In this document: positions 3,808-47,068 of the stretch, in pieces
Numbering within the stretch: position 1 is the stretch's first letter
How the letters are laid out: each line of letters opens with the position of its first letter
Virus record (IMG/VR): IMGVR_UViG_3300032007_000068
Location: 11,926 to 75,925 of that record
Direction: 5' to 3' (one strand)
Length of the DNA: 64,000 bases
Source of the DNA: a virus
Taxonomy: Duplodnaviria; Caudoviricetes
The notes under the pieces: generated by a model
The model's database searches: none
What the model saw: only the letters and a program-made list of their open reading frames with translations
What the model was told of the DNA's origin: nothing
Translations under genes and position numbers: made by a program

Positions 3808-3818
3808 GAGAACTAATG

Positions 3819-3846
3819 AAGGGTTTGAGTTTCTCAAACCCTTTTT
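3819..3846 (+). terminator. Intrinsic terminator upstream of the tape measure gene
   Basis: AAGGGTTTGAG-TTT-CTCAAACCCTT 11-bp stem followed by a T run. Confidence 0.8.
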
Positions 3847-3878
3847 CGCATATATTGAGTAAAAGGAGGAAAAATTTT

Positions 3879-6800
3879 ATGGCTATCCAACAATATGGTA
3901 TTAAATATCGTGTTGGTTTTGAAACCGATTAGGCTTCTTTATAGAAAACAGTAAATGAAGCTATAAGTGCTTTGTAGAAGATAGGTACTAACAGCTAGTT
4001 TGGTGTTGCTAAAGAATTATAGAATGCTAGTAGTGCGGCATATAAGCTAGGTAGTATACTCAAAAATTCCATTAATATGGATACCGGAAAGTTTGAGATA
4101 GATAAATTCTAGCAAAAATTATAGCAAAGCGGCATGACTTTAGAGTAGTATCGCGATGAGCTAGCTTAGTTAGGTCCGCAAGGTAAAAATGCTTTTGGGC
4201 AGGTTGCTGATGCTATTACTTCAGCCGAGTTACCAATGCGGCGTGTAAATACTTTATTAGACAAGCTCTGGGCTACTATGAAGAATACTATTAGGTGGCA
4301 ATTTACTTCTAGGGCTTGGATGACACTATTAAGTTCTATTAGAACTGCTTATTCATATAGCTAGGACTTAAATACAAGTTTAAATAATATTCGTATAGTA
4401 ACTGGGCATAATGCGGACGAGATGGCTAGATTTGCGGAAAACGCGAATAAGGCTGCCGCTAAATTAAATACTACTACCACTGAATATGCAGATGCTTCTC
4501 TTATCTATTTCCAACAGGGCTTCGATGATGCGGAAGTGGAACGTAGAACTGCTGTTACGATTAAGCTAGCTAATGCGGCCGGCATTTCCGCAGAGCAAGC
4601 ATCTTCGCAATTAACCGCTATTTGGAATAACTTCTCTGACGGTTCGGACAATCTGGAACGATATGCGGATGTGTTGGTTAAATTAGGCGCTACGACTGCA
4701 TCTAGTTCAGAAGAAATTTCCAAAGGTATGTAGAAGTTTGCGGCAGTTGCGGATACGGTTGGATTAAGTTATGACTATGCTGCCTCAGCTCTTGCTACTA
4801 TTGTTGCTGAAACGCGTACTAGTGCGGAAGAAGTTGGTACTTCATTAAGAACTATATTTGCTCGTTTTGAGAGTTTAAAGCTTGGAGAGACTCTTGAAGA
4901 CGGTGTTGATTTAAATAAATATACTGCGGCTCTTGCTTCTGTTGGAGTTAATGTACTTGACTCTAATGGCGAGTTGCGACAGATGGACGATATCTTAGAT
5001 GATATATTTAAGAAATGGCAAAATCTAAATCAAGCGCAATAGAATGCTTTAGCAACTACTGTTGCCGGTGTTAGACAGTATGCTAACTTTATTGCATTGT
5101 TTAAGAATGCTGATACTTTCTATCAGAATGTTGAAACGGCGCAAGGCGCTACTGGCGCTTTGCAAGAATAGGCTGATATATATGCTCAGAGTTGGGAAGC
5201 TGCGAAAGACCAGGTAAAAAATGCGGCTTAGGATATATATGATAGTCTAATTAACGCAGATTTCTTTATTGATTTTGATAACAACATTCTTGCTCCTCTT
5301 TTACACGGCATAGCCAGTGTTATAGATGGATTTGGTGGATTAAAGGGATTGTTACCCACTATTGCTGGTTATTTAACCATGATATTTGGTCCTCAAATAA
5401 CTAGCTTTATGGACAATTTTGCTTATAACCTACGAGTTATTTCTGGTATAGAGGCATAGAGGGCTAGAGATTTACAAGCTGAGGCCATGCAACTCAAAGC
5501 TGGCATGGCAGTTGACACTGGCGATACTACAGAGCAAGAGAGAGTTGACTTAGAAAACCAAGTTTTAAAATTAAAAACAAAAATTTTATAGACATCAACT
5601 CAATATTCAGAAGCATAGCAAGAAGACATTAGAACTTAGGCTAATTTAATTGATGAACTGATAGCCCAATGGAAAGAGGCAGCCAAGCAAGCTAAAGAGT
5701 ATGAGGATACGGTAGAATATACTAAATCAAATTTATCTAAAAAGGTTGAAGAAAAACTACCTCAAGCTTTACAAGCACAAGGTATCAAAGTAAAAGAAGG
5801 ATAGACAATAGCAGTACATGAATAGCTATCCAAAGATTATACAGGAGATAAATATTATACTCGTCCAGAAGCCTTGCAGGGATATAAGGGGCAATCTGAT
5901 AGTGATGTAACTTCTTTCTTTTTGGGCAAAGATACGGAAACAATTAAATAGTAGATTCAACAAGAGATTAATGTGATAGAAGAAGAATTAAAACAACTAG
6001 ATGGAATTGAGGTCGATGATGGTTATATAAAAGGGTTAAAAGCCAGTTTAAAAGAAGCCCAGGCTGATTTAGAAGCTTTAAATAATATTACGGTAATTCC
6101 TAAAATAGATGTTTCTTAGCTTGACTTAAAGGAAAGCGAGAAAATTCTTGAAGAAGGTTCAATATTAAATTTAAAGCTGAATTTAGAAGCTACAGACGCA
6201 AAGGGCAAGGTTGCCGAGATTTTAGGTAGTGTCGATAAATTGCAATCCTTGTTTAAATAGCTCGGTACACGAGAAGGCGGTTTAGAGGCTATTCGGCAAC
6301 AATTTGCACAATTGGATACATCAACAAAGTTAAGTAAAGAAGAAGCAGAGGCTTTGTCTGCCGAGTTTAAGCAATTAGGACTTAATCCTGACCAATTTGT
6401 CCATGAAGGAGATACAATACAACAGGTTTTAGACCAAATAAGCCAAGCTACAAAAGAGACTAAGACCGTAAGCGAGGAATGGATAGGGGCTTTAGAAAAA
6501 GTTGCTGGGACGGATCCTGATTTAAAAGGGCTTTTAGCTAATCTTAAACAAACTGCGGAAAGTAGTAGGTAGGCTGGACAAGCTAATGTAAACGCAGCCG
6601 GAGCTTATCATTAGGCAGCAAATGGAGTAGTAGTACTGGCTAAGAAAGCGGGAGAAGCTGAGAAGTAGGTAAAAAGTTTTTCATAGCAAACTACCATGGC
6701 TATTTAGGGTATTACTGCTGGCTTGGGCGCAGTTACTGCTTTTTCTTCTTCCATAAAAATACTAGGGGATTCTTCTGCGGACGCTACTGCTAAATTCGGC

Positions 6801-9800
6801 GCTGTTCGTTCAATGGTTTATTCTGCGATACCAGCGATTAATAGTCTTGGTAAAGCAATAGAAGGCATTAAGAATAAGACAGCTGTAGCCGGTGGTTGGA
6901 TAACTATTGTTATTACTGTTCTTGCCACTTTAATTTCTGTATTATCAAAAGCCGGTGTATTTAAAACACCTTTTGAAAAAGCTGCTGAATCAGTTAAGAA
7001 GTATAAAGAAGAATTAGAAGATTTAAATAATTCTATTGAGAGTAACGAAAAAGAACTTGAAACCATGCAGAAACGCATGAAAGAGCTAGAAGCTATTAAG
7101 GTTCCTAGTTTGGCAGAAGCTGAAGAATTAGAGAATTTACGCATTAAAAATAATTTATTAGCTTACTAGACTGAAGAATTAAAGAGATAGAGGAAAGAAA
7201 CTTAGAAGTTATTAGCAGCCGAACGAAAAAGAATGGCTGAATCTGGTTCTGATGCAATGTCTGAGGCAGTGCGGTCCAAGAGAGGCGGTTTCTTTGCTGA
7301 TGTTGGTGATTTTATAACTGGAAGTTCTAATGAGTCCCAAGCAGAAAAATGGGTTAGTCAAAAAGCATTTGCTAATTTTATGGAAGATTAGAAGATGGGG
7401 CAAGTCGAGGCTTATTGGGCTATAGATTCTGGCAAGTATAACAAAGAGATAAAAGCCGCGAGAGAATAGGCTTTATTGGAATTTAGACAAGAATTTAGAG
7501 AAACGGAACAAACTGCTTTACAAGATTTTCAAGATTATGTTGAATTATAGACAGAGCTGGGTTTAAAAATAGAAGAAGAGCAAGTTCAGCTATTGGCTAG
7601 TACTATGAAAGCGTATTGGCTTGAAGACTTTGAAACTGGTTATGTTGGTCCAGTTTTAAATGCCTTCTCTTAGAGTCATGGTGAGATTGTTGAAGCCTTA
7701 ATCAAAGGAACAACATTGTCCGATGAAGAAAAATAGCAGTTATTAACTAGTGGGTTAACGATAGAAGATGCGGCAAGCGCGATAGGTAATTTAAAAGAAC
7801 ATTTTAGATAGTTTACTGGTGGAGAAAGTTGGCTAAATAGCCTTTCTGCGCAAGAAATTAGTTATTTGTTAACTTTAGATTTAGACGATAAATCATTAAC
7901 CGATGCTTAGAAAATAATTGATAATTATAGAGGTGAGTTGGCCGCTGAAGTTGAGGCCGCTGGGAAGGTTTTATCTGCCTATAATAAGGCTAACCATTAG
8001 AGTATTTTGGATAAAATAGCTGCAACTAAAGATCTTACCGATAAAGAATTAGAATACTTGTAGGCATTAGAAAAAGAGTATGATTTATTAAATCTTTTAA
8101 GTGGCGATAGAAGTTCGGCGGCTTATCAAAGAGAACTATTTAACATTTAGAATATAGAAGAAGCAAGAGGGATTTTGACTCAAATTGATACCGTTTTAGA
8201 GCAAGGTGCTTTAGGTAAAGCCAAACATTTAGCTTCTTTATCTGAGCAACTTGAAACGGAAAGAGACAATAGAACCAACTTAGTTTTTAACGCAACTAAA
8301 ATGCATGGCCAAATTATCCAAGGCGATATTACTACTCCTTTATCTCAAGAACAAGAGGCAGCTTTATAGTATATATTGCCCGGGGTAACAAATCTTTTAT
8401 AGAGAAACGGGACTACTACTCAAGCGCAAGAATATATAAAAAAATATACAAGCGGGCTGTTTGATAATATAAATATGACCGATTTTGTAGAGAACATAAA
8501 TTAGGACCTGGATGCTGGATATACAACGGATGAAATTAATCAAAGAGCTACAGAAAGAATAAAGAGTTGGGTATCAGAGAGCGAAGAAGTTCAAAAATTA
8601 AAAACAGAATATCAAAAATTAAATGAAGAAATAGAGGATAGTACAAAAAAAGTAAATTAGTTAGAAGAAGATATTGACTCACTTGCCATTTCTAACATTT
8701 CCTTTAAAGAATTAGTAAAATCTGCGCAAGAGCTTGGTTCTTATTTAGCGCAAGATTTGGCTTCTGATATTGATTATATTGCTGCTCGTTTTGATGCTAT
8801 GAGCAAGGCTGATAAAATTTTAGCTTCTGGATTTACCGTTACTATAGATGAGGCTAAAGCTTTAGCTGAGGCCTATCCTGGCATTTTAGAAAGCTATGAG
8901 ACTACTAGTGATGGTTTAATAAAGATAGATGAAAAAATAGCAGAATCTGCTAAACAAACCGCTAAAACATAGATTGATGAAGATATTAAAGTAGCTTTGA
9001 GTAAGGCTCAAACTGCTATAAAATATTATGAAATATAGCTACAATTATATGATGATGCTATTACAGCCTTAAAGGAAAATCAAGATGATTCACAACAAGC
9101 TATTGAATAGCACGAAAAAGCAAAAAATGGGTTAGAAGAAAATGCAGCGTCTGTTTCTGCGGGGATTGCTAAAGAATTAGCAGATGATGTAATTGGTTTT
9201 TCAGACGATTCAACTAATGCGGCTATTATTGATGCAGAAAATTACGCTGACGCCTGGACTAGTTCTTATGCAGCGGTAGAAAAAGCATATTATCAATATG
9301 TAAAATCATATGAAGCTGGTCAGAAAGTTCTTGCTGCGGCGGATGAACAACAATGGCTTTTGGCTAGGCAACATTTAGGTGAAATGGGGCGTGTAACAGC
9401 TGCTTATCACTCTGCGGCCACTCTACAAAACAATGCCTTGGAAGGAGATTTTACTTTTGGGTTTAGTTCTGAAGAAGCATGGAAAAAAGCCATGCTATCC
9501 GACGACCCAGAGCTTCGCAAAACGGCTAGAGACGCAGCGATAAAATAGTATCAAGCGTTACGAGAAGGAGCTGCAAGTACTTTAGATATGTTGCGTGCCT
9601 ATGAAGGCGAACTAATGCTAAGGCAAGCGGGTACTTATAATACAGACAAGTCCAAAAAATCTGGTGGTTCTAAATCTGAGGCAAAAGAAAAAGAGGCTTT
9701 AAAATGGCAATTAGAGCGTTACCACGAAATCTCTCGTGAAATAGCTTATCAAGAGCGTCAAGTTAGCAAATTAGATAAAACTATTTCTAGAGCCTACGGC

Positions 9801-12647
9801 GCGAATAAGCTACAAGCGTTCGCGGATAAAGAAAAAGCTTTAAATAAACAGCTAGTCTTAGAGCAAGAAAAGCTTCAAGAAGCTAGTGAAAAGTGGCTCG
9901 AAGCTGATAAAGCGGCTTTAGAAGAGTTGGGTGTTGGAGTTTAGTTTGATGCGGGAACGGGCGAAATATCTAACTATAGTGAGATTATGACTGCGGCCGC
10001 CGATGCACAGTAGAAAGCTATAGATAAATATAATGCTTATGTTAAAGAACATCCTAACGCTACTACAGAAGAGCTGAAGAAATATCAAGAAGCGATGGAC
10101 GCAACTCAAGAGAGAATGTCTGATATTACCGATGCTATTAAGAATTACGAAGATAGCTTAACCAAAGTAGCTGAATAGCAAGAAAAAGTAGCAGAGATTT
10201 AGAGGTCAATAGCAGATAATAGATTGGCTGCTTTTGATGCCACATTGCAACTTAAATTAGATGTACAATCGGTTAAGGATGCTGTTAATGAATTAAATAA
10301 AGCTTTTATTCAAGCCAACGGTGATGTGCTAGATTATGGCGTAGACTTACTTGGAGCCAGAGAAAAAGATTTTGATGGGTTAATGACCAATATTAAAAGC
10401 AGGTTAGACTATGCTAAACAGTTAGCTTATGAATTAAAAAACCAAAAAGAAGAAACCGATGTTGCTAAAACAACTGAAAATCTTAAAAACACTATTTCTG
10501 AATTAATGTCAGATGCCAAATCTGCTTTAGAGTTTATCGCAGAATGGGAAAAGCTATATGCGGATGCAGTTAATGCGGCCATGGAACGATTTAACTGGTA
10601 TATTTCGCGGCTATCTCATAATAGCACGGTTGCTAGTACAATTAAAGAGCTGCTTACTCTTTAGGGCGTTACTAATAAGACAGCCGATGGATTCGGCAAG
10701 TTACAAAAGGTTTTACAAACCTAGCTCGATGCCGCTATTACCCAAGGTAAGCTTCAAAAAGATGCTTATGATTACTGGACTGCGCAGGTAGCTATCGCTA
10801 ATGAGAATTGGAACTCTGTAAAAGATAATGTAGACGATATTAACTATGACCGCTACAAGAATGATTTACAAGCCGTTATAGCATAGCAAGAAGCAGCCGA
10901 AGATGCTATGTTAGCTTCAGCGAAGGAATCTATGGAACTGGCTCGTACGATGTACGAGGAGTAGCTTGAAAGAGCTAAAATTGAGTTCGAATAGATAATG
11001 ACTGACGGTTCTAGTATTAGCGAATTACAAAAACAGTTTGACCACTTCATCGACGAAAATGAACGATACTTTGATGACGTTAATACTGCTTATCATATAG
11101 CAGATTGGCAAGCTAAGCTGCAGGCTGACATAGATAATACCACTAATGCGGCGCATAGGCAATAGCTACAGCTTCTTCAAGAAGAAATAGAAACTAGAGC
11201 TGAAGGCGGCAAATTAAACCAATATGACCTAGATATTCTGAATGCAAAGTACAACCAAATGCAAGCTCTTATGGCTTTGGAAGATGCCCGGAATAATAAG
11301 AATACTTTGCGGCTGGTGCGGGATAGCTAGGGCAACTGGAACTATCAGTACACCAACAACGCGGATGATGTAGCTGCATAGGAGCAAAAGCTCGCGCAAG
11401 CAAATAATGAGTATTACAATATTGCTAAGAAACAAACTCAAGATGTTACTAGCTAGATTATTTCATTATGGCAAGAGTGTGAGGATGAGATTGATGAAAT
11501 CTTTAAAGATTCTACTCTTACTGAAGAGGAGCGCAATGCCAAAATAGCAGAGCGTAAAGCCTATTACGCGCAGAAGGCCGTAGACTTAGAACGTGAAAAA
11601 AACCAAGCCATTGCAGATATGACTGCGGCGGCTACTGCGGCGGGCATTGAGTTCTCTAATTCTTATATAGCTAGATTAAGTGAAATGACTACAAAGAATG
11701 TTGATTTTGAAGCAAATTTAGATACTTTGTTAAACAAATGCTCTAATTATTATAATGACTTTTCTACTGTTGTTGCGGGGGTTGCCGAAGATACTGGTAC
11801 TAATATTAGTAGCTTAGATGGCTATACGAACAACTTAGCTGAGTCAACCCGCAACTTTGGCGATGACGCAAAGGAGGCTTGGGGTAAAGCAAAAACTGCT
11901 TTGGAAGAATATGCAGAAGTATTAAATGGTCTGGTACCTACTATGGAAATGGCTAGCCAAACTGCGAAAAATTTAAAAGTAACTGGCGATGCAGTCGCAG
12001 AAGCTACAGAATAGGCTAGCGGTTTAGGATACCACGATGAAATTGTATATGACCAATTAGGAGCTTATGCCAAATCTACGGGAGCTTCTACCGGTATTTT
12101 ACGATAGATATATAATGAACGGCAAATGAAAATTTCAGCTAATCCAGAATTGAGTAAGTATTCTATGTCTTGGGAAGAATTTTTACAGCATATAAATGGA
12201 TTAACTAAATATCAAGTTGGCAATATATCCGATGCCACTTTAGCTAAATTTAAAGATTGGCTTAATTTAATGGGGATTCAAAGCCTAGCCACTGGCGGTT
12301 ATACTGGTGATTTTTCAGATGGTAGATTAGCTCTGCTTCACGAAAAAGAACTAGTCCTTAATTCACAAGATACTAGGAATATTCTTACCGCAGTTGCCTT
12401 GACGCGCCAAATGGCAGCAACGCTTGAGGCAGCTATAGATGGTTCTGCGAACGCTGGCCTAGCTTTAATGCGGAGTCGCTTTGGTGAGCGTATAGAAATA
12501 CCCGCTTTACCCGGCGATCAATTAGAGCAAATGATACATATAGATCAAATAGAGTTCCCCAATGTGACCACTGCTTCAGAAATCCAAGAGGCTTTCCGCA
12601 ACTTAGCAGACAATGCGTCACAATGGGCTAGACGGAGGAAAAGCTAA
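3879..12647 (+). CDS. Tail tape measure protein, about 2922 aa (code 15)
   Basis: ATG 3879 follows AAAGGAGG. All + strand track fragments from 4422 to 12126 are in the same frame (position mod 3 = 0), and in the stretches read by hand they are separated only by TAG. It has a TP901-like core (GMQKFAAVADTVGLSYDYAASALATIVAETRTSAEEVGTSLRTIFAR), long Ala/Glu/Lys-rich helical stretches and a C-terminal LATGGYTG...LLHEKELVLN motif. It ends in TAA. Confidence 0.92.
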
Positions 12648-36514: not shown

Positions 36515-39500
36515 TATTCCATCACCCCGACGTGCTTGGTTCTATCGTGTACTTCAGCTTGTTTGCCAAGATTAAATGCGCTAGTGTAGTCACCAGTTAA
36601 ATAACCCGTTACTCGACGTAATTGCTGGATATGGGTGCTGCCGCAGACAGGACATTTATCATTAAACTCACCTGTGTATCCGCATTCCAGGCAAGTATCA
36701 TTCGGTACATTTAAAGCAAAATACGGTATATCGTGGTCCATTGCGTAATTAACTAGAACTTCCAAGGCGTCAATGTTATTCTGCATGCCGCTAGGAAGCT
36801 CAACATATGTAATACAACCCGCATTAGAATATCCGGTTAGTTGACTTTCAATATCTATTTTATCAAAAGGCGAGATTTGGTGCCACACTGGAACGTGCAT
36901 GGAGTTCGTAAAGTACTCTCTATCACTAACATTAGGTATAATTCCATACTTCTTGCGGAAAGCTTTAAGAGCCGTATAGGCAAGATTCTCGGCCGGAGTA
37001 TAATACACTCCAAAATTAAGATGCTCTTGTTGTTTAAATTCAGCGCACCTAATATTAAAGAGCTATTCAATTTTCTTAGCGAGTTCCATTCCCTCTGGTG
37101 TAGTATGGTCGGTACCAATAAGGATTTGGAGTGCTTCAGCCAGCCCTAATTGTCCAATAACTAGCGTAAAGTGACGCATAACGCTCCGTACGGTCTTGCC
37201 ATCAAAGCCTATGCCTAAACCATTTTCATACATAAATTTTGCACTCTCAACAGGTTGCGAGCATATGTATTCATATCGTTCTATTAGCATATCTTTAGCT
37301 TCGTGGATTTTTTTATCAAGAAGCTCCATAAAAATTGCAATAGTTTTATCTTCTGATTTCTCAGTATAAGTATCCGCAAGTTCTTCTGCTTCCATCGCTA
37401 TAGTAGGCAGAATAATAGTGACGGGACAACAGTTTCCTCGGCCATCTTTAGTCTGCGGATTTGTGCCGGGGTCCGCGTTGATGTCGGCACCATTGCTGGT
37501 CCTACACCCCATTGTGCTAAAGTAGGTCTTCGGGTCAGTTGGGTCATAGCCCGCGTTAACTGACCAATCTACATTTGCGTAGTTGGGATAGAGGCGAAGC
37601 GCAGTAGATTTAAGAGCAAGTCTGTATAAATCATAGTTAGGTTCGCCTGGTTTGCGGTTGACCCCTTTCATACACTGGAAAATTCCACACCTTAATACCG
37701 TTCCTTTCGGAATACTTTAACACTCTTTATTTCAAGAGTCGGAGTAGACTATATCATCATCTATTAAATAATAGATGCAAGGCACTTCGATACATATCGC
37801 TATGTATCTACTCCCTCTCGGGATAGTCGTTAGACCTTATATTTAATCACACATAAACACTTTATCTTCACAAATAGTTTTTCCTTCTTGCATATAGCGC
37901 CAAAAAGTAGAAAGTGAATATCCATATGCCTGCGCAGCTTTTGTATAAGAAGGATAGGTTTCTAAAAGCTCTCCAGTTAAAGAATAAACTTTAATATTAT
38001 GTCCTTCTGCGTCACCAATTCTCTCATGGCGATTGTTGTAAGCATTATTATATGCTACTGTACACCATTCAAGATTTTCAACAGTATTATTAGAAGGATT
38101 TTCATCTTTATGATTTATAACTGGCAAATTGTTTGGATTAGGCAAGAAAGCTTCTGCGACAAGCCTATGCACGAATTGACGATTCTTCTTACCTGCTTCT
38201 ACCAATGTCACTCGCAAATGCCCATCCCGCGTAACCTCTGGAATTAAGAGACGTTCCTTATAGTGTCGTGGTCCAGTTGCAGTATTTATTATTCGATCAT
38301 TTGCTCGCACTCGACCGAGATTACTTACTGCATAATTATTATTATAAATATTTTTCCATATTTCTTCCATAGGATTTCCTCCTTCCTTTAAAGATAGTGT
38401 GTGTTAAATATCTTGGCACAGGATTGCCATATCTCTCTCTCTAATGTAAGAGACTTAGGGTTTCCCTGTTAGCAGAGATATCTCAATGATCATTTCCTAT
38501 CATATTTTATCTCCACACCCGCCTCTGGCGGTTCACCTTGTTTTCAATAATTATTACTAATTAAAGCCCCAGTAGTTTAGGGAAGATGCTAGTTTTGTGC
38601 AACTTACCGAGTCCCTCTATAGACACTTCAAGCAAGGCTTTTGTTACCATACGGCCCTCTATGAGAGTGCAAGTACCGTAGTTGATAGAGGTAAAAGGTA
38701 ACTAGTTCCCCGACCTGGACTGGAGTGTATTGAGGTTGTGCGCTAGGCCTTCCGCCGCTTGATGGATTTCTTTTTCAGTCATCCTTAAAGCATAATTATA
38801 AACTTTCGCGTCATATGCTTTCCATTCTGCATCTTCAATACTATAATCTTCTATGTCATCTAACATATAAGTAATCTCATAATCTATTTCATCAAGCGAC
38901 TTATTTTCTATATACTACCAGCCATCTTTGTAATGCTTAGCGAAGCTTTTCCGCACATATGGAACCATCGTCCAATCCAAATGAGTCGCAGATACGCCAC
39001 CAAACTACTAAAGGCTTTGGAGTTGGAATATGACCGCAACGAGCTGGAATGCTGTATTTACCGAACCGGCTGGCCGCACGTCGGTTTGACGGGTGTTAAA
39101 TCCTTCAGCCAGTAACTTGTCGAAAGGGATAGATAAACAGTTATGAGAGCCAACTGGGTATGCGCTTAAGTCATGGATATAAATTTCATTATTTTCGTGA
39201 TTGCGCCGCGCCATCGGAGACACGCAGTACTCCAAAGCGTACTTTTTCATTTGTAAATCACTAGCCGCTCCGACTCTACCGCCAAATGACCGCTCATCTA
39301 CGTTAGCATTTTGGTTCTCTACATCAGTAGCCTCGATTTTAGATTTTAGCGCTTCAATAAAATCATTCTGACTATTCCTCGCGGCTTCTCTTTTATAACG
39401 GTAACGGATATATGCCTTAGCTACATCTGGTCTTTCTGAAGCCATTAAAAATTGCTCGACTAAGTCCTAAATAGTTTCAACCGTAAGTGGAGTGGGATTA

Positions 39501-39658
39501 GCAAGAGCAACTAAGTATATTTCATCTGCTATATCTTTGGCAGTATCATCTTCATAAAGCTACCTATCAACTTCAATAAAAGCTTTATTTATTGCAGTAA
39601 TAATCTTCTCTTTATCAAATTCAATAATATCACCATTTCTTTTCTATATCAATACCAT
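36514..39658 (-). CDS. nrdD: Class III anaerobic ribonucleoside-triphosphate reductase, spliced join(39658..38579, 37689..36514), 751 aa
   Basis: N-terminal ATP cone (KRNGDIIEFDKEKI...ETIQDLVE), YIHDL...HNCL, SIFP|CGIF across the intron, MGCRT, C-terminal CxxC...CxxC and glycyl radical motif RRVTGYL. It contains several TAG. Confidence 0.93.
37690..38578 (-). mobile_element. Group I intron in nrdD (889 nt)
   Basis: Exon ends ...TTCCCT (U), and P1 pairs CCCU with GGGG. It contains a GCTAACAGGGAAACCCTAAG...GGCAATCCTGTGCCAAG core, R CTAACGACTATCC and S GATATAGTCT, and ends in G. Removal restores SIFP-CGIFQ in frame. Confidence 0.9.
37843..38370 (-). CDS. Intron-encoded HNH homing endonuclease (NUMOD4 + HNH)
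   Basis: MEEIWKNI...YAVSNLGRVR (NUMOD4); VHRLVAEAFLPNPNNLPVINHKDENPSNNTVENLEWCT...N (HNH). No TAG. Confidence 0.92.
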   Translation of the reverse strand: MEEIWKNIYNNNYAVSNLGRVRANDRIINTATGPRHYKERLLIPEVTRDGHLRVTLVEAGKKNRQFVHRLVAEAFLPNPNNLPVINHKDENPSNNTVENLEWCTVAYNNAYNNRHERIGDAEGHNIKVYSLTGELLETYPSYTKAAQAYGYSLSTFWRYMQEGKTICEDKVFMCD

Positions 39659-39685
39659 ATTTTGAATTAAACCTCCTTGGCACAA

Positions 39686-39723
39686 ATATGGATATACAAT
39701 TTCTTAGAACTGTATATCCATAT
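39686..39723. promoter_or_regulatory. 13-bp perfect inverted repeat in the nrdD leader
   Basis: ATATGGATATACA-12 nt-TGTATATCCATAT, between the promoter-like motif and the nrdD RBS. Confidence 0.6.
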
Positions 39724-39765
39724 ATAATGAAAAAACTTGTAGATTAATTATCCCAATGCGCCCGC
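39719..39765 (-). promoter_or_regulatory. Copy of recurrent 47-nt promoter-like motif upstream of nrdD
   Basis: Minus strand GCGGGCGCATTGGGATAATTAATCTACAAGTTTTTTCATTATATATG, which aligns without gaps to the 3761 copy. Confidence 0.4.
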
Positions 39766-40301
39766 AATCCATTAGCAATATATTCGACGATAGCTTCAAA
39801 CTCTTCTAAAGAATTATTGAACAAGAGCGTATAAGTAATATCACTCAAATCTGCGAAGTCAGCTTCATCGGTGCCAAAACGCCGTATAATTTCGTATACG
39901 TTAGGTTGTTCTTCCCTATTTAGCTGCCGCAAAAGCCGTGCTTTATCATTGGCTACTAAATAAATAGTAATTAACTCAATATCACGACGTTCCATTAAAT
40001 TGCGGACGCCATTTGGGCTAAAAACTCCAATATTTATCTTGTCTGGTGATAGAGTATGCGCGGCTGTGCCATAATGCCAGTTATTAAAAACGGTTTGTTC
40101 TAGTAAGTCAGCCGCCGCGAACTCTTCTTCGGTTACAAAGAAGTAGTCTCGTCCTTCTTTTTCATTGGCTCTTGGTGGGCGGGTGGTGCAAGAAATTAAA
40201 GCGTTAAAGTAATGTGGCATATAACTAACCACATTCTTTAACAAAGTATCTTTGCCGCACCCGGCTTTCCCCATAATTGCTATAATTTTATATTTCTGCA
40301 T
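39744..40301 (-). CDS. gmk: Guanylate kinase-like protein
   Basis: P-loop GKAGCGKDT, ISCTTRPPRANEKEGRDYFF, NWHYGT. The probable start is ATG 40301. Confidence 0.85.
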   Translation of the reverse strand: MQKYKIIAIMGKAGCGKDTLLKNVVSYMPHYFNALISCTTRPPRANEKEGRDYFFVTEEEFAAADLLEQTVFNNWHYGTAAHTLSPDKINIGVFSPNGVRNLMERRDIELITIYLVANDKARLLRQLNREEQPNVYEIIRRFGTDEADFADLSDITYTLLFNNSLEEFEAIVEYIANGLRAHWDN

Positions 40302-43300
40302 CTTCTTCCTCTTCTCCTGGTATTCGTTCACTTCTTAATTGTAAATCTCCATTTGGCAGAATACCATCAATTTTATATAATTGGTGCATACCACTTGCGG
40401 CGTATTTTTTAGGGATAAAATTATCACCACGACGGATACCTTGTATTAATATCATTTGCCCCTTATTAAACCAACTACGCTCTAGAACAGTTTTACTACC
40501 ATCTTCGTTTTTGCGGAATATTTGCCTATCAAATAAAGCGAAATATTCTTTTCTGAACTTAACAGTAACTACTCCATCTGTGGTTAATAAAGAAACATTT
40601 CCCTTATTTTTATCTTTTGCTATACAAGTGCCTATAATAAAACTTAATTTATAAATAGGAACAGTAAAATCACCGCGCTTAAAAGTTTTTTCTACAATAG
40701 GCTCTTCTGGTAATTTATTAAAGGGGACAATATTATATTTGCGGGTGTTGGTATCTTTAAGTTCATGGTCGTGATAATAAAAACATAACGCATCCATTTC
40801 CCAAGCGGAAAGATTGCCGCGTCCTTTATATTTATTCCAATCGCTCATAAAAATGGTTTCATTTAAGCTATCTAAAACGGCTTGTGGGTCTGCCTTTATC
40901 CAGGCTCGAAATACATCCATATATGATTGATATACTTTATCCCAAGCTTTAATATCTAAATACATATTAGTATTATCAGTTTCTAATAAAGTGTCACAAT
41001 CTATTTTTGCAAGAAAATCTATAGCGCGAGTATCTAATTGATATTTATTAGCTCGCATTGAGTGCTTACACTCTACTTTTAAATACTTATTAAATTCATA
41101 TACCCGTAAAGCCATTTGCTGTTCTTCTGTATCTTGCGGGAGTAGCCCATATCGTATTAAACCTGGCATATTTTGAAGCGTTACACGCGACTTTTTATCG
41201 CACGTATGCCAAATAAATTCTACCAAAGTGCGCGCCCTGTCTTGAAAGCTATCAAAAGCACCGCCCTTTATAAGCATTATCATAGCTGTTTTATTAGGTT
41301 TTACTTTTTCGTAAAAGTCTAACCAAGATGAATATGGACGATTTTCTATGATACTTTGAACTACTTCTTCTCCCACGTTGCTAATACCTTTTAAACCATA
41401 TAGTATTCGGTTATGTGCAACTTCAGGGTAAAATGTATAACTTGACTCGTTGATATCAGGCGGATAAATGGTAACACCCGCCGCAATCATATGCCCCATA
41501 GCTTGTGCCATTTTTCCGTATTTAGCACCTTTGTTGTTAGCATCTTCGAGTTCACCGCCACCAGAGTTAGCTATGAGACAAGCACAATTCCAAAATATTA
41601 TCGGAAATCTAAAAGCGAGATTCATTTCTTGTAGGCCTACGAGCGAATAAGCTAGGCAGTGAGAACGGTTAAATGAGTATCCGCGTTGCGGAGCAAGCAG
41701 AGTTTCCCATACATAGCGAACCAATGCGGGGGAACAACCCTTTTCTTTTGCGTTGCGGTAATACGTCTCCTGACACTCATCAAATAATTTTCCGATTTTC
41801 TTAGCTAGCGCCTTGCGACATTGGTCAGCAAAGGTTAACGTATTGCCACCTAACCGTTCGTCTTGGACTAGGCTCATGAGCCCTTCTTGGGACTCACACA
41901 TCCCGTCTGTGCAGGCGTCATGGTGAGATAACCAACTGATTTCATCGGCAGTTAAACCCGCCTGCCGCATTTCGTTGTACCATTGATTAATATCTCGTCT
42001 ATATCTTGCCCACATTTGGAGTGGTTGTTCAGCGCCTTTCTCTGGAGCCATTAGACGAATAACTGAATTTAAAACAGTTAGGTCATTAAGATTTTTTGGT
42101 TTAATTAAAGCTATACCTTGAATACCACTTTCTTTTTCCATCTGAAACAAATCCTGAATTTCATGGTTCCAAATCATCTGCCACATTTTAGGGTCTTTGC
42201 GCTCTAAGTTGTATATACCTATTGTTTTTTCGTATGTTTCTTTTAGAGTAGCGCCAGGTTTTATATAATTTTGTTCGATGAGTAGGTCTAAACACTGGTG
42301 AATCTTATCAAGGCAGTTTACCGAAAGAAGGTCTATCTTAATCAAACCAGCAGCCTCAGCGTCGTGTAACTCATAACTAGTTACTACGTCGCCATTGGGC
42401 GCCCGCATTAAGGAAGTAGCATTCGTGAATGGCTCATCTACAAAAATTACTCCACCCGCGTGTTCTCCCACTGAACAAATTACGTATAATCTAACATTTC
42501 TGTTAGTACTGACTATATCTTAACTCTATTCATAAATGAATAGACAACACCCGTTTCGGTTTTCATGCGCTTCGTTGCCTAAAACGCAGGTACGTATTAA
42601 TAGTACCCCTACTGGCAGCTTAACCTGCCATAGTCGATACAGGCTCATTTTCGATCTTTTGGTCTAATAGGATAGATGCGGTCTTTCTCATAGTAATTTT
42701 TACCGGAATTAATTCTAGATACACAAGAAGCATCACAAGAAACCAAATTCGCTATTTCTTTATTATTTAATTGATTTTCTTCTAGTAGCTATTTAATCCA
42801 TTCAGCTTTTTCTTTAAACTTTTTTTGTTCTTTGGTTTCTGGCCGAATAGGATAAGTTAAATTTGGCTATTTATTATGACGTCCCATATTAATTGCTGAA
42901 ACTTGTCCAACGTTAGTATTAGTTAATTCGGCTATTTCAGTATTTTTATATCCTTGTTGTAATAAAAGAATAATCTCTTGTATCTATTCTTCAGAAAGGA
43001 AATTTTTATTATTTGTTCTAATAGGATATTCATTATCGTTTAATAGTCGATATTTTGTACCAGCATTAATTTGATTTACCGTACTAGCAGAGATATTAAA
43101 CTATTTAGCTATTTCTGTTTGAGGTATTACAGTAGTTTGTAACATCATAATGATTCCTTGCGCCTATTCTTTTGATAAAGAACAACGTAAATCCCAATAA
43201 TTTTCATTGTTTTTTCGTTTCTATCCACCAATAGTTAAATTATATCCATTTCCATTTTTCACATAACTATTTTTTTCTTTTATCCAAAACTATTCTCGTG

Positions 43301-45421
43301 CATCAAGCTATTCTTTATCTTCTACTTCTTCTAAAATTACTAATTCAAAATTATCAATGCCGTATTCTCGTATTTTTTGGTGAAACAGGCAACTATAATC
43401 TGAAGCTTTTTCATGTGTAGCACCAGATAAATGTAAACGATGCCGTTCTTTTAATGGCATAGTAGTTTGTCCTACATACCACTTATTATTAGTTTTGTTC
43501 CTATAGCCATAAATATAATTCATAATGCTATCATCTCCTTCATATTATGTGAAAATGTTAGCATCTCTTTTAAACATTTTTGACCAAAAGTTCTAAAAAG
43601 TTCCCACGGAATTACCTTGCCTTTAAAAGTTTAGGTTTTCCCGTTAGCATATAAAAATTTTATATACCCCTAATTATATATTAGGTAAGGGTGTTTGATA
43701 GGACCAATCTTATAGTGATCCCTCTATTTCACTAGCTACTTGCCACAACTCTTTATATTCTTTCATTGCTTGAACAAAAGGCGCAACAGGTTTAAATCCC
43801 TTTTCTTCATCACCGTAATAACATTCGTGTAAAGTGCGGGTTTGGCCTCTGTCTGCGGGGACGAGAGAGGCAATATACAAAGATATATCATTATCTATTC
43901 CCAAACCTCTCGCCGCGGTCTGAATTGCGGATTTTGCTTTCTCTGTATGGAAAGTAATAACATTGGCTACTCTATCTTCGCCATAATAGTCTTTTAATGC
44001 TTGTAGTACGATGGGGCGACGGGCTGACTCTATATCGGTGTCAATGTCAAGTACGCTGACACGGTCAGGGTTGAGAAACCTCCACGCATAAGTTCGTGTC
44101 TCCTCCCAGAGAGGATTAATCTGTATGACATCCAAGATGTACAGTAAAAGGAAACCTACCCCAGAGCCTCTACCCGGTCCTACTAGCGTTCCTGCGTCCC
44201 AACACACTTGAATATTATTTTGAAGGTTTAAAAAGTAAGCTGACCATCTTGCGTTATTAACTTCTGAACTTTGCCAAGTGGTTTCAAGATTATTATTTAA
44301 TTCATTATATATTTCTGGAGCTTGTAATCTTTCATCAGATAATAATTTGTCAACAATAGCAAGAGCAAGAACTCTGTCACTTTGATGCGGAGACTCATAA
44401 AAAATTTGTAATTGCGGGATGCGCTGGAACCATACTTTCTCTATTGCTGTAATATTTGGAATTTTCCATTTTAAAGCTGGGATTTTTAAAGGTTTTAATA
44501 AGCTATAATCTTCACAACTGCTACGAATTGTTAAAATATTCTCATAGGCTTTATTAAGCTGCTCTTTTGTAAAGTAAGGAAAGTAACTTTCAAGTTCCTC
44601 TGTACCCATCATATAAGTAGAGGCATAAAACTCGTCGACTTCCCTTTCTCCTTCTTGCGCGGTTAGGAAAGCTTTATGAATGGGGCGGTCGGTCTTGCGC
44701 AGATAATGGCTATCAGTGGTTATGATATATGGAATTTTTAACTGATTAGACAGCTCCACTAAAACTTGGTTAACATAAATTTGGTCGCTATTATAAGAAG
44801 GTTGCATTTCTAAATAAAAATTATCTGTGCCAAAAATAGATTGCATCCAAGTACACCAAGTCATAATATTATTCTTATAATCTACAGCTTCTTGTCCCTG
44901 GAGTGTTTTTAATTTGAGAATTTTAGTAGCAAGAAATCCGCCTAGACAAGCGGTACTGCCAATTATATGGCCCGGGTTCGTACCAATAATTTCTTCTATG
45001 TCTTGGTAATAAGTAGGAACCCGTGCCATATTAAAAGATTTATAGGAACGAAGAAAAGCTCTGGTAGATAATTCCCGCAGTTGCTGATGTCCAACAGCGT
45101 CTTTAGCCAGAAGAATAAAGTGGAAATATTTATCTTCACCGCGCACGTAGTTAGAAGCGTCAAGCCCATCCCGCACTAGATATATCTCATTTCCTAAGAT
45201 GACTTTAAAATCTGGGTGCTCTTGTTTAATTTTTGTATAGTATTGTTCTACTTTTATATGGCTACTTAAACATTCATGCTCGGTAATTGCAATAACTTGA
45301 TGCCCCAATTCAATCGCATAGTCTATTAATGTATTATAACGATTAATACTATCTCGAAGGCGTGTATTGCTATAATCTGTGTGGTTCAGTTATGAAGACT
45401 TCCTGGATAAGGTATCTTCAC
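40288..45421 (-). CDS. dnaE: DNA polymerase III alpha-type (family C) polymerase; exons 45421..43718 and 42482..40288, with a 5-nt insertion at 45387-45391
   Basis: PHP domain (YPGSLHN/HTDYS, AITEHE, GNEIY, TTDSHY), GRGSG, FLNPDRVSVLDIDTD, EGL|ICSVGEHAGG across the intron, KIDLL, YSFNRSH, GIRRGD OB fold. No in-frame TAG in the two long exonic ORFs (532 and 727 aa). Confidence 0.9.
42645..43523 (-). CDS. Intron-encoded GIY-YIG homing endonuclease with three C-terminal HTH-like repeats, 292 aa (8 in-frame TAG)
   Basis: MNYIYGYRNKTNNKWYVGQT...R...H...FELVILE...E...GYNLTIGG, then three IA...S.IN.G...YPIR modules. It is open to TGA 42645-47 only under code 15. Confidence 0.85.
43541..43587 (-). 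promoter_or_regulatory. Copy of recurrent 47-nt promoter-like motif inside the dnaE intron, upstream of the GIY-YIG ORF
   Basis: Minus strand TTGGTCAAAAATGTTTAAAAGAGATGCTAACATTTTCACATAATATG, then AAGGAG. Confidence 0.5.
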
Positions 45422-45623
45422 TTGGCATTCCCCCTTTCAACTCTTCTGCGGCAGCCTATTCCAATAAATTCATATTAGTAGTATCGGTTTTGCAAGTATG
45501 GCGATAATGGTTCCAGACTTCCCAGAAATTATGCTCACTTAGCCACTCATAAGACATCTAATTCAAAGAAGGAAAGGGTTCCATAGAATCAGCAAAACTA
45601 TTATCTGTCCCAAAAATACTTAT
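45390..45623 (-). CDS. Small hypothetical ORF, 77 aa (probable ATA start), overlapping the dnaE start
   Basis: A promoter and GGAGGGG are followed by in-frame ATA. The frame is open through 2 TAG to TAA 45390-92. Confidence 0.45.
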
Positions 45624-45653
45624 GTTCTTCCCCTCCTTTTTTTATATAATAAT

Positions 45654-45682
45654 ATTATAACATATTTACTGAACAAAATCAA
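45654..45682 (-). promoter_or_regulatory. sigmaA-type promoter
   Basis: TTGATT-17-TATAAT with TG extension. Confidence 0.65.
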
Positions 45683-46329
45683 CTTGCTCGATGTATCCAA
45701 TGCATGAGAGGTGGGAAACATCCATAGTTAATTAGTGTTTTATTCCACACCAGCCAACAATATGCCTGCGCGGAAGAGCCAGCGGGTTTTTCGCCGTTCT
45801 TCCAACACTGTATTCTATCAATATATTGATAGATCTCACTTGGTGGCTCTTTCGCAAAGATATTTTTATATCTGCTGGCTCCTTCAAGAGCCTGAGTACG
45901 GCAAAGCACAATCAGCTTTTCTTGAGCAATTTCAAGAGCACGAATAAGAAAAGGTTCAAGTGTTGCATAAGGCGGATTCATAATGATTATATCTGCTTTA
46001 TCTATAGGGTAATTATCACCTAAAAAGTCTAAATCGTCGCCATAAAGCAATATTGCTTCATTTGAGTGATAACCGCGGTCTTGAACATCCGTCCCCGTTG
46101 GCTGAGGACACTTATAGTTATTGGCATTAAGATATTGAAGAATGCCGTTCATCATATGACCACCACCAACACAAGGCTCAAGTATACTTTTATTGGAAAA
46201 GTCATACTTTAACGTATTTAATATATTGGTTACTTCGTTAGTGGGAGTAGAATAATAATCCAATTCTGCTCTTTCTTTATTATTTTTTTTATAAGAGTTA
46301 TATAATCCTTTGTTGGTATATTGTCCCAT
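45679..46329 (-). CDS. N6-adenine (amino) DNA methyltransferase
   Basis: DYYSTPT, ILEPCVGGGH (SAM-binding), IIMNPPY (catalytic). Confidence 0.85.
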   Translation of the reverse strand: MGQYTNKGLYNSYKKNNKERAELDYYSTPTNEVTNILNTLKYDFSNKSILEPCVGGGHMMNGILQYLNANNYKCPQPTGTDVQDRGYHSNEAILLYGDDLDFLGDNYPIDKADIIIMNPPYATLEPFLIRALEIAQEKLIVLCRTQALEGASRYKNIFAKEPPSEIYQYIDRIQCWKNGEKPAGSSAQAYCWLVWNKTLINYGCFPPLMHWIHRAS

Positions 46330-46330
46330 C

Positions 46331-47068
46331 TTATGCTCCTTTGTATTTATATAACCTTTCTACCGCCTTGAAAGTATTATCTTTCCCCGCAGTCCTTTTA
46401 CACTCTCGCTCCCATATTATTTCAAAATCTTCTGGAGCGGTTTGTTCAGAGATAAAAACTGAATTACAACTGCTTAACTCTCGTACCCAATTCCAGAAAT
46501 GCTCATAATCCATACGGGGTTCGCTGGCGTAGCCGTAAAATTTAGTGTTCGCATATGGCGGGTCTAAGTAGATTACAGCACCAGTTGTGCTAGGGTCAAG
46601 TTCCCAATAATTTTGACATTTAAAAATAATACCCTTTAAGTTAGGCGCTTGCTTTTCCATATTACGATAAGCTTCTTGATAATAATTGCGGGTACTAGAG
46701 TTCTTCGCATAGCCTCTAGGAAAACCACCATTACTAAAGCTAGCAAAAAATTCAATAGCACCAACATCAGCAAGAGACATAGTAGTCAAAGGTTTCCCGT
46801 CTTTTACATAAGCTTTGCCTTCATCCCACATTTCTCTATTACCATCTTTTGGAAGCGCTGAAAAATCAAGAGCTGCTTGATTTAAAAGAGCTATTAAAGT
46901 TTCGCTGCGGTCATAGCCATATCTATTATCACAGTTTATTTTATCTATTATATTAGCTCCACCAACAAAACACTCTATATAAGTATTTGTTTTTGTTTTA
47001 TCTATCTCGGCCTGTAAAATTGGAACAATGTATTTGGCAAATTTAGCCTTACTTCCCATATAAACCAT
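46331..47068 (-). CDS. Dam-like (D12 class) N6-adenine DNA methyltransferase
   Basis: YMGSKAK, ECFVGGANI, IYLDPPY, VFISE. Confidence 0.88.
   Translation of the reverse strand: MVYMGSKAKFAKYIVPILQAEIDKTKTNTYIECFVGGANIIDKINCDNRYGYDRSETLIALLNQAALDFSALPKDGNREMWDEGKAYVKDGKPLTTMSLADVGAIEFFASFSNGGFPRGYAKNSSTRNYYQEAYRNMEKQAPNLKGIIFKCQNYWELDPSTTGAVIYLDPPYANTKFYGYASEPRMDYEHFWNWVRELSSCNSVFISEQTAPEDFEIIWERECKRTAGKDNTFKAVERLYKYKGA

Follow-up and report, generated by a model that had tools for sequence, protein, structure and literature searches.

A candidate programmed short translational bypass at codon 11 of a phage dnaE gene

How does a phage produce its replicase from a gene whose reading frame closes after 11 codons? 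The question is posed by the dnaE gene of IMG/VR virus record IMGVR_UViG_3300032007_000068 (Duplodnaviria; Caudoviricetes), a 75.9-kb linear record, 46% complete, from bovine gut or rumen samples. We analysed a stretch of 64,000 nucleotides (nt) of this record (positions 11,926 to 75,925; hereafter the window, in whose coordinates all positions are given unless otherwise noted), in which dnaE runs on the minus strand and is broken by 5 nt within the first motif of its PHP domain. Comparison with related loci leads us to think that translation of this gene probably involves a programmed short bypass (a stop-hop) at codon 11, in which ribosomes would leave the message at one Asn codon, pass over a stop codon and resume after a second, matching Asn codon.

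The break itself can be read directly from the DNA, and the first-pass annotation of the stretch had described it correctly. A Shine-Dalgarno sequence (AAGGGGG, 45430-45436), separated by an 8-nt spacer from a GTG start codon (45421-45419), precedes a first coding segment of 11 sense codons (45389-45421; MKIPYPGSLHN) that is homologous to the N-terminus of intact relatives and reads GTG AAG ATA CCT TAT CCA GGA AGT CTT CAT AAC TGA. The last sense codon of this initiating frame, AAC (Asn, 45389-45391), is the take-off codon of the proposed hop; the UGA that follows it (45386-45388) would occupy the A site at take-off. The rest of the polymerase lies in a second frame, which follows a TAA (45392-45390) as CTG AAC CAC ACA GAT TAT AGC (*LNHTDYSN...), is open as far as 43710, and carries the PHP and DNA_pol3_alpha domains. 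At the junction, CAT AAC/TG/AAC CAC (here and below, slashes set off the bases between take-off and landing codons), a second AAC (45384-45386) overlaps the last base of the stop and would serve as landing codon, and CAC (45381-45383), which motif alignment with relatives identifies as the second His of an H-x-H motif, would be the first codon decoded after it. Dropping 5 nt (45387-45391 or 45384-45388, which are equivalent placements) yields LHNHTDYS, the motif of contiguous relatives; this earlier observation agrees with the N-termini of all 20 IMG/VR relatives first examined, which are at most 67% identical and read M..YPGSLHNHT[DE][YF]SN without interruption. Three other ways of reading the region were tried and rejected. 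If TGA is taken as a sense codon, the initiating frame still meets a TAA 18 codons later; an out-of-frame ATG (45428-45426) lies 1 nt from the Shine-Dalgarno sequence and opens a frame that ends at the TAA at 45392-45390, with no route to the main frame; and an internal AGGAAG that might have been taken for a signal is the result of conserved Pro-Gly-Ser codons and is found in intact genes too.

To establish whether the 5 nt belong to the genome, Logan contigs were aligned to positions 40000-46500 from the source sample (X1), two unrelated studies (X3 and X4) and an RNA library (X9). Contigs of the source sample show 0 differences and cross the site without a gap. Those of the unrelated studies come from diverged strains and likewise show 0 gaps over the site (X3 record 15, 43719-45437, with 27 substitutions; X4 record 22, 43728-46362, with 64 substitutions). 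A contig from the library filed as RNA (X9 record 30, 45221-45421) has 0 differences across the site; the contigs of this library, in which DNA carry-over is possible, cannot show transcription, strand or level. No indel at the site occurs in the contigs of any of the four runs, and contigs hide rare variants. A fourth DNA data set supplies a locus (L113) whose protein is 99% identical, from a cluster of 32 members, and whose DNA is identical to the window over 45283-45702 (420 nt around the dnaE start). In exon 1, this locus and the window differ at 40 sites (38 codons), with 32 synonymous and 6 non-synonymous, conservative changes. The strains sharing the break are 1.6-2.6% diverged. Because the break is present without gaps in four independent data sets from diverged strains, the 5 nt are genuine and common to circulating strains. 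Purifying selection acts on the frame downstream.

Comparison with more distant phages shows that an intact motif is the rule. Nearly all of 80 metagenome loci are contiguous through the PHP motif, and approximately 50 distinct intact relatives read ...YPGSLHNHT[DE][YF]SN in a single frame. Many gene calls among 240 database proteins have odd N-termini, where the DNA shows either miscalled starts or frame-breaking inserts. Indeed, 15 further loci carry breaks, of eight kinds (4, 5, 7, 8 and 10 nt), all of which fall inside the same PHP motif at three codons. Two kinds follow the Asn codon: the window's own site and kind recurs as CAT AAT/TG/AAC CAT (5 nt) in L118, which is 63% identical in DnaE, and a 4-nt version, CAT AAT/T/AAC CAT, is found in L132-L136, L139 and L142. 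The take-off codon is thus AAT in L118 and L132, and the landing codon is the same as the window's in L118 and the L132 group. Two kinds follow the second His, namely CAT/TG/AAT ACT (5 nt) in L031, L114 and L115 (62-74% mutually identical; clade A) and CAC/TAGC/CAA ACT (7 nt) in L029. The remaining four follow the Ser codon: TCT/TAAC/TCT and TCT/TAAA/TCT (7 nt) in L030 and L116, respectively, which are 84% identical; TCT/TAGC/TCA (7 nt) in L120; TCT/TGACG/TCA in L041 and TCT/TAGCG/TCA in L131 and L141 (8 nt); and TCT/TAGAGAA/TCT (10 nt) in L119. L118 belongs to a non-sister lineage, and the flanks of its break carry many synonymous differences from the window; the site is otherwise intact or differently broken in related phage genomes. 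On a tree of the 240 proteins, the gapped or intact state needs at least 11 changes, with gapped lineages scattered among intact ones. A degenerate DNA pattern for the window-type break retrieved only three chance matches in IMG/VR.

Two candidates were set aside in this survey. L032 (P0067) had looked like a broken gene and proved to be intact, with a miscalled TTG start; given that case, database proteins starting MI[DNE]YA.. or MSNQ.. were not counted as breaks. L117 (P0081) was left out as chimeric upstream of the site: L117:1-480 is GC-rich unrelated sequence up to ..GG/TAACTCCAATTTACGT, where dnaE homology starts, and the scaffold was probably joined at the break. A further group of dnaE calls (P0005, P0009, P0014, P0047, P0087, P0201, P0214, P0232 and others) start internally (MSNQRLRD.., MIDYAIELG.., MGHEV..); some are miscalled non-ATG starts and others may hide further breaks.

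What unites the eight kinds is a recurrent layout. In 8 of 8, the last conserved codon is immediately followed by a stop; in 6 of 8, the take-off codon and the triplet preceding the resumption codon specify one and the same amino acid (Asn/Asn or Ser/Ser); and a hop restores the exact family motif in every kind. Within one kind, the stop is kept as a stop (TGA in L041, TAG in L131), and within another the spacer base varies (TAAC in L030, TAAA in L116). By a rough estimate, an immediate stop would arise by chance with a probability of about 0.07 per case, and a landing triplet with the same amino acid with one of at most 0.06; the combination of 8/8 stops and 6/8 matched landings is thus very unlikely for random indels. 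The hop from AAC over UGA to AAC that had been proposed from the window alone is favored by L118 (AAT/TG/AAC) and by the seven other kinds with the same layout.

The gapped loci share a second feature, a hairpin that links start codon and take-off codon and is lacking in intact genes. In the window, it spans 45392-45421 on the minus strand, pairing a 5' arm that holds the start codon (GUGAAGAU, 45421-45414) with GUCUUCAU (45399-45392) and including an inner CCU/AGG stem; its predicted stability is -10.0 kcal/mol, and the take-off codon follows immediately on its 3' arm. The hairpin is present in 15/15 gapped loci, with the 5' arm beginning at or beside the start codon and the 3' arm ending 0-3 nt before the end of the take-off codon. 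When the start region was paired with the 15-18 nt ending at the take-off codon, the gapped loci gave -8 to -15 kcal/mol, whereas the mean for 34 intact genes was -4 to -6, and pairing in the window was stronger than in all 34 intact relatives at the same site. The pairing is also site-specific: in the Ser-site kinds it forms at the Ser site but is missing from the Asn/His site, and in the other kinds the pattern is inverted. A test that is free of start-codon assignment gave p = 2e-4, 8e-3 and 8e-5, values that are optimistic in that some of the loci are related. In L029, a compensating change converts AAG/CUU to AAC/GUU. These comparisons suggest that the hairpin would act as a dedicated stimulatory mRNA signal.

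If the two frames are joined in one protein, the short upstream frames should carry the marks of coding sequence. Over 16 codons, the upstream frames of L030 and L116 are separated by one Thr/Ser replacement and five synonymous substitutions; those of L031 and L114 show two synonymous differences. The Tyr-Pro-Gly codons of the window, L118 and the L132 group, which lie in the hairpin loops and not in the stems, show synonymous variation only. To judge from these substitutions, the short upstream frames are evolving as coding sequence. On the other side of the break, 13 broken lineages keep all other invariant His/Asp/Glu/Cys columns of the PHP domain, from which it would follow that the metal site is still selected and needs its upstream His. 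The H-x-H spacing is invariant in 174 intact relatives, whose motif is the LHNHTDYS of the hop product.

From a break that is real, conserved under selection, recurrent in layout and coupled to a hairpin, we infer the hop, together with its efficiency, its purpose and the part played by the hairpin, as follows. Ribosomes would start at GTG 45421 and make MKIPYPGSLHN, bringing peptidyl-tRNA(Asn) onto AAC in the P site with UGA in the A site. The anticodon would then release, the mRNA would slip 5 nt forward, the tRNA would re-pair with the next AAC, and decoding would restart at CAC. The product would be a single DnaE chain with an intact LHNHTDYS and the junction peptide YPGSLHNHTDYSNTR, rather than HNNH or HNLNH. 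At take-off, the 3' arm of the hairpin would lie inside the ribosome and the 5' arm would already have emerged, such that refolding could draw the mRNA forward during the stall imposed by UGA in the A site; the hairpin is thus the likely driver of the hop. Failed hops would end after 11 codons at low cost, and replicase output would be limited because non-hopping ribosomes terminate there. The hairpin would also bury the start codon, and hairpin and hop together would keep replicase synthesis low.

The same arrangement of a short frame, a stop and a structured start codon could also describe a leader ORF (open reading frame), with translation restarting at the overlapping CTG (CUGA), as the first-pass annotation had suggested as an alternative, or elsewhere, to give a DnaE lacking the first or both of the His residues of the PHP motif. 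The window does have a CTGA stop/start overlap, L118, clade A (L031, L114 and L115) and L041 have TTGA, and a hairpin at the start codon could equally serve leader-type control of initiation. We nevertheless regard re-initiation as unlikely. A canonical start beside the stop occurs in only 3 of 9 break forms (of the eight kinds), with none in L030, L116, L119, L120, L131 or L132; a leader peptide would have no reason to keep YPGSLHNH(T/S)(D/E)YS, mostly by synonymous change, or to duplicate the junction codon; and the coding-like upstream frames are accompanied by conservation of all remaining PHP ligands, arguing that the motif is still in the protein.

A single-step frameshift at a shifty stop, which would have to be +2 or -1 for the window and +1 for the 4-, 7- and 10-nt kinds and would add one or two residues to the motif, is in our estimation distinctly improbable. 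A stop in the A site is a classical stimulator of such events, and every case has an overlap of one codon or more between the two frames. However, there is no slippery sequence, and the P-site tRNA would have no pairing at +2, -1 or +1. The products, HNNH or HNLNH, would destroy the H-x-H spacing, and the codon that would supply the extra residue lacks conservation, being AAC in L030 and AAA in L116. The 4-, 7- and 10-nt class and the 5- and 8-nt class both occur, such that no single direction of frameshifting explains the breaks; differing mechanisms would be needed for each kind, whereas one hop explains them all. Nor does the window resemble a prfB-type +1 frameshift site, as it needs +2, -1 or +5, offers no overlapping re-pairing, and has its AGGAAG 7 nt upstream rather than 3.

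It might be asked instead whether dnaE is simply dead or dispensable, or the phage defective, with the 5 nt a plain frameshift mutation and another polymerase in use. A second polymerase is conceivable for a record that is 46% complete, and no relative is known between 69% and 99% identity. Against this, at least four samples, which differ in study and year, carry the break, with a 32:6 ratio of synonymous to non-synonymous changes downstream; lineages of 62-84% mutual identity show the same layout; and an immediate stop in all eight kinds together with the landing match is unlike random indels. Purifying selection and the deep conservation of the same breaks thus weigh against a null mutation, which had also been raised in the first-pass annotation and which we consider very improbable.

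Removal of the 5 nt at the nucleic-acid level, whether as a micro-intron, by RNA editing or through a minority DNA variant, finds some encouragement in the U before and the G at the end of AACUG and in the large mobile intervening sequence elsewhere in dnaE, but is hardly credible, as 5 nt cannot form a self-splicing intron (a group I core takes at least about 200 nt, with P3-P8, and a scan of 39500-46500 gave no Rfam match), the eight kinds share no ends, the RNA-library contig keeps the 5 nt (DNA carry-over being possible), and no indel variant appears in the contigs of the four runs, which hide rare variants; the presence of breaks in four data sets, in an RNA-filed library and in several frame classes likewise leads us to reject the earlier idea of a collapsed intron or assembly artefact.

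Several points weigh against a programmed hop. Its support is comparison of DNA, and no junction peptide has been seen. Two of the eight kinds land with a mismatch, at 2 of 3 bases (CAT to AAT and CAC to CAA). With a nascent chain of 11 residues, a nascent-peptide signal like that of T4 gene 60 cannot act, and the low efficiency of synthetic stop-hops sits uneasily with an essential replicase. Given the 46% completeness of the record, another polymerase gene may be present elsewhere in the genome. Because codons within the hairpin arms are constrained by the hairpin, some of the upstream conservation could be at the RNA level; within the window's own lineage, the 420 nt round the site are invariant and provide no internal test. 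Finally, some of the gapped loci in the hairpin statistics are close relatives of one another.

Comparison with known recoding systems helps to place the proposed bypass. The features that would define one appear together in the window: non-overlapping take-off and landing codons read by the same tRNA, a stop in the A site, a junction that only a hop can produce, and a candidate mRNA signal. In E. coli, matched codons flanking a stop allow hops (PMC5009743), and the synthetic stop-hops of Weiss et al. 1987 (reviewed in PMC5009743) have an identical layout, including out-of-frame +5 and +6 events; those events are low-level, artificial and without dedicated signals, whereas the dnaE layout is natural, conserved and hairpin-coupled. 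T4 gene 60, like dnaE, is an interrupted phage gene related to replication, with a take-off codon, a stop and a matching landing codon, and in both cases a stem-loop in the mRNA, at the take-off site or 5' of it, is implicated; for gene 60, forward movement has been proposed to be driven by pairing of the mRNA as it exits (bioRxiv 10.1101/2024.12.09.627546). The differences are considerable. The gene 60 gap is 50 nt, compared with 4-10 nt in dnaE (5 in the window), which leaves no room for an in-gap take-off stem-loop; the dnaE nascent chain of 11-18 residues is too short for a KKYK-type tunnel signal of the gene 60 kind (approximately 25-30 residues back); and the dnaE site lies at the very start of a different gene, without sequence relation to gene 60, with its hairpin holding the start codon. 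Of the features of the gene 60/MobA cassette, the window has no in-gap stem-loop, no nascent-peptide signal and no adjacent HNH gene.

Gaps of 7-10 nt have been proposed to be bypassed in a Streptomyces phage terminase (PMC10732093). This candidate, the terminase of phage Hau3, shares with dnaE natural short gaps of similar length in a phage gene and a conserved protein junction that favors a hop over a frameshift; a 5' stem-loop and a Shine-Dalgarno-like element are the proposed signals. In the terminase, the slow codon in the A site is UUA, a sense codon that is rare and linked to host development, whereas in dnaE it is a stop, and only three genes of the terminase type are known, compared with many lineages and three sites within one motif in dnaE. 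The byps of Magnusiomyces capitatus mitochondria (PMC5009743) resemble the dnaE breaks in being many independent frame-breaking inserts, in accepting 2-of-3 matches and in their likeness to mobile DNA; unlike dnaE, they are 27-55 nt long, occur in many genes, have an unassigned A-site codon and belong to mitochondrial translation.

The adjacent mobA HNH homing endonuclease of T4 gene 60 has a positional counterpart at some of the gapped dnaE loci and not in the window. An HNH endonuclease gene of 200-234 aa, ending at or overlapping the dnaE start (L031:252-953, L119:2-601, L131:2-346, L019:2342-2971), lies directly upstream of gapped dnaE in six loci (L031, L114, L119, L131, L141 and L041), and the same gene is also found beside intact dnaE in L019, L020, L051 and L052. 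In the window, the gene upstream of dnaE is a DNA methyltransferase, and the 257-nt spacer holds no endonuclease remnant; an ORF at 45456-45557 was considered as a remnant of an HNH C-terminus and rejected, its likeness to the endonuclease of the relatives being unsupported by tblastn. Between L113 and the window, which differ by 2.6% in exon 1, the upstream methyltransferase part (45970-46143) is heavily diverged with indels and resembles a swapped segment.

Beyond the break, dnaE has the surroundings of a replication gene. Its neighbors include an SF1 helicase, two DNA methyltransferases and a deoxynucleoside monophosphate kinase; it is the only DNA polymerase gene found in the record, the 75.9 kb of which contain no family A or family B polymerase gene, and no DNA similar to the window is present in the GenBank phage collection. 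ORFs with a length of 600 nt or more span 21.7 kb of the window under translation table 11, compared with 54.4 kb when TAG is read as sense. TAG is a sense codon in late and structural genes (for example, a 2943-aa ORF at 3816-12647 with 65 TAG codons), and is mostly absent from the replication genes, the late genes occupying 3816-33385 on the plus strand and the replication genes 34000-64000 on the minus strand. The first-pass statement that dnaE lacks TAG is borne out, with both exons open under table 11 and late genes full of TAG. No tRNA gene, suppressor tRNA included, was found within the window.

By domain search and reading frame, the remainder of dnaE exon 1 (43718-45383, minus strand) encodes the PHP domain and the first part of the polymerase core, and exon 2 (40288-42482, minus strand) the rest of the core, the finger and the HhH domain. 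Between them, after EIEG, lies an intervening sequence of 1235 nt (42483-43717, minus strand), where the upstream exon ends in U and the insert in G; an Rfam scan of 39500-46500 gave no match, group I included, which leaves this sequence untyped. Inside it is a GIY-YIG homing endonuclease ORF (42645-43523, minus strand) with 8 in-frame TAG codons, although its host gene is a TAG-free early gene. The intervening sequence is missing from strains X3, X4 and L113, and the 15 exon bases beside it vary between alleles (LICSV and LVCSI). The break in the window is independent of this intron, because X3, X4 and L113 keep the break without it. The same three strains have another dnaE interruption (approximately 270 nt in L113, at L113:3933-4204) where the window is continuous, at approximately 41640-41668 on the minus strand; dnaE interruptions thus differ among near-identical strains, and mobile inserts in dnaE vary. 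In the RNA library X9, contigs cover 42519-43699 of the intervening sequence near-fully, at a depth of 5-9, and the dnaE exons patchily, which could reflect a stable excised RNA or merely chance and DNA carry-over.

Few systems of efficient natural bypassing are known (T4 gene 60 and its homologues, the yeast mitochondrial inserts and the Streptomyces phage candidate), and the literature searched contains no description of bypass in dnaE, even as short counterparts with matched codons have long been expected in the field (PMC5009743). For annotation, the consequence is that gene callers truncate or misstart dnaE here, and the annotation of phage replicases in metagenomes is therefore systematically wrong at this site. 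If the hop is true, then 5 nt, an 11-codon chain and one small hairpin would make up the simplest natural system for ribosome release and sliding, and would offer a direct test of exiting-mRNA folding as the driver of forward movement. More broadly, we lean toward the view that the gaps of 4-10 nt, each led by a stop and located in the first PHP motif of dnaE in phages, may be minimal bypass elements that make up a natural family of their own, separate from T4 gene 60. The hairpin between start and take-off codon would be their whole recoding signal, pulling the mRNA a few bases forward once its 5' arm leaves the ribosome. Repeated gain, loss or movement, at times in company with an HNH homing endonuclease, would mark the history of such elements, which may double as a gate on replicase synthesis.

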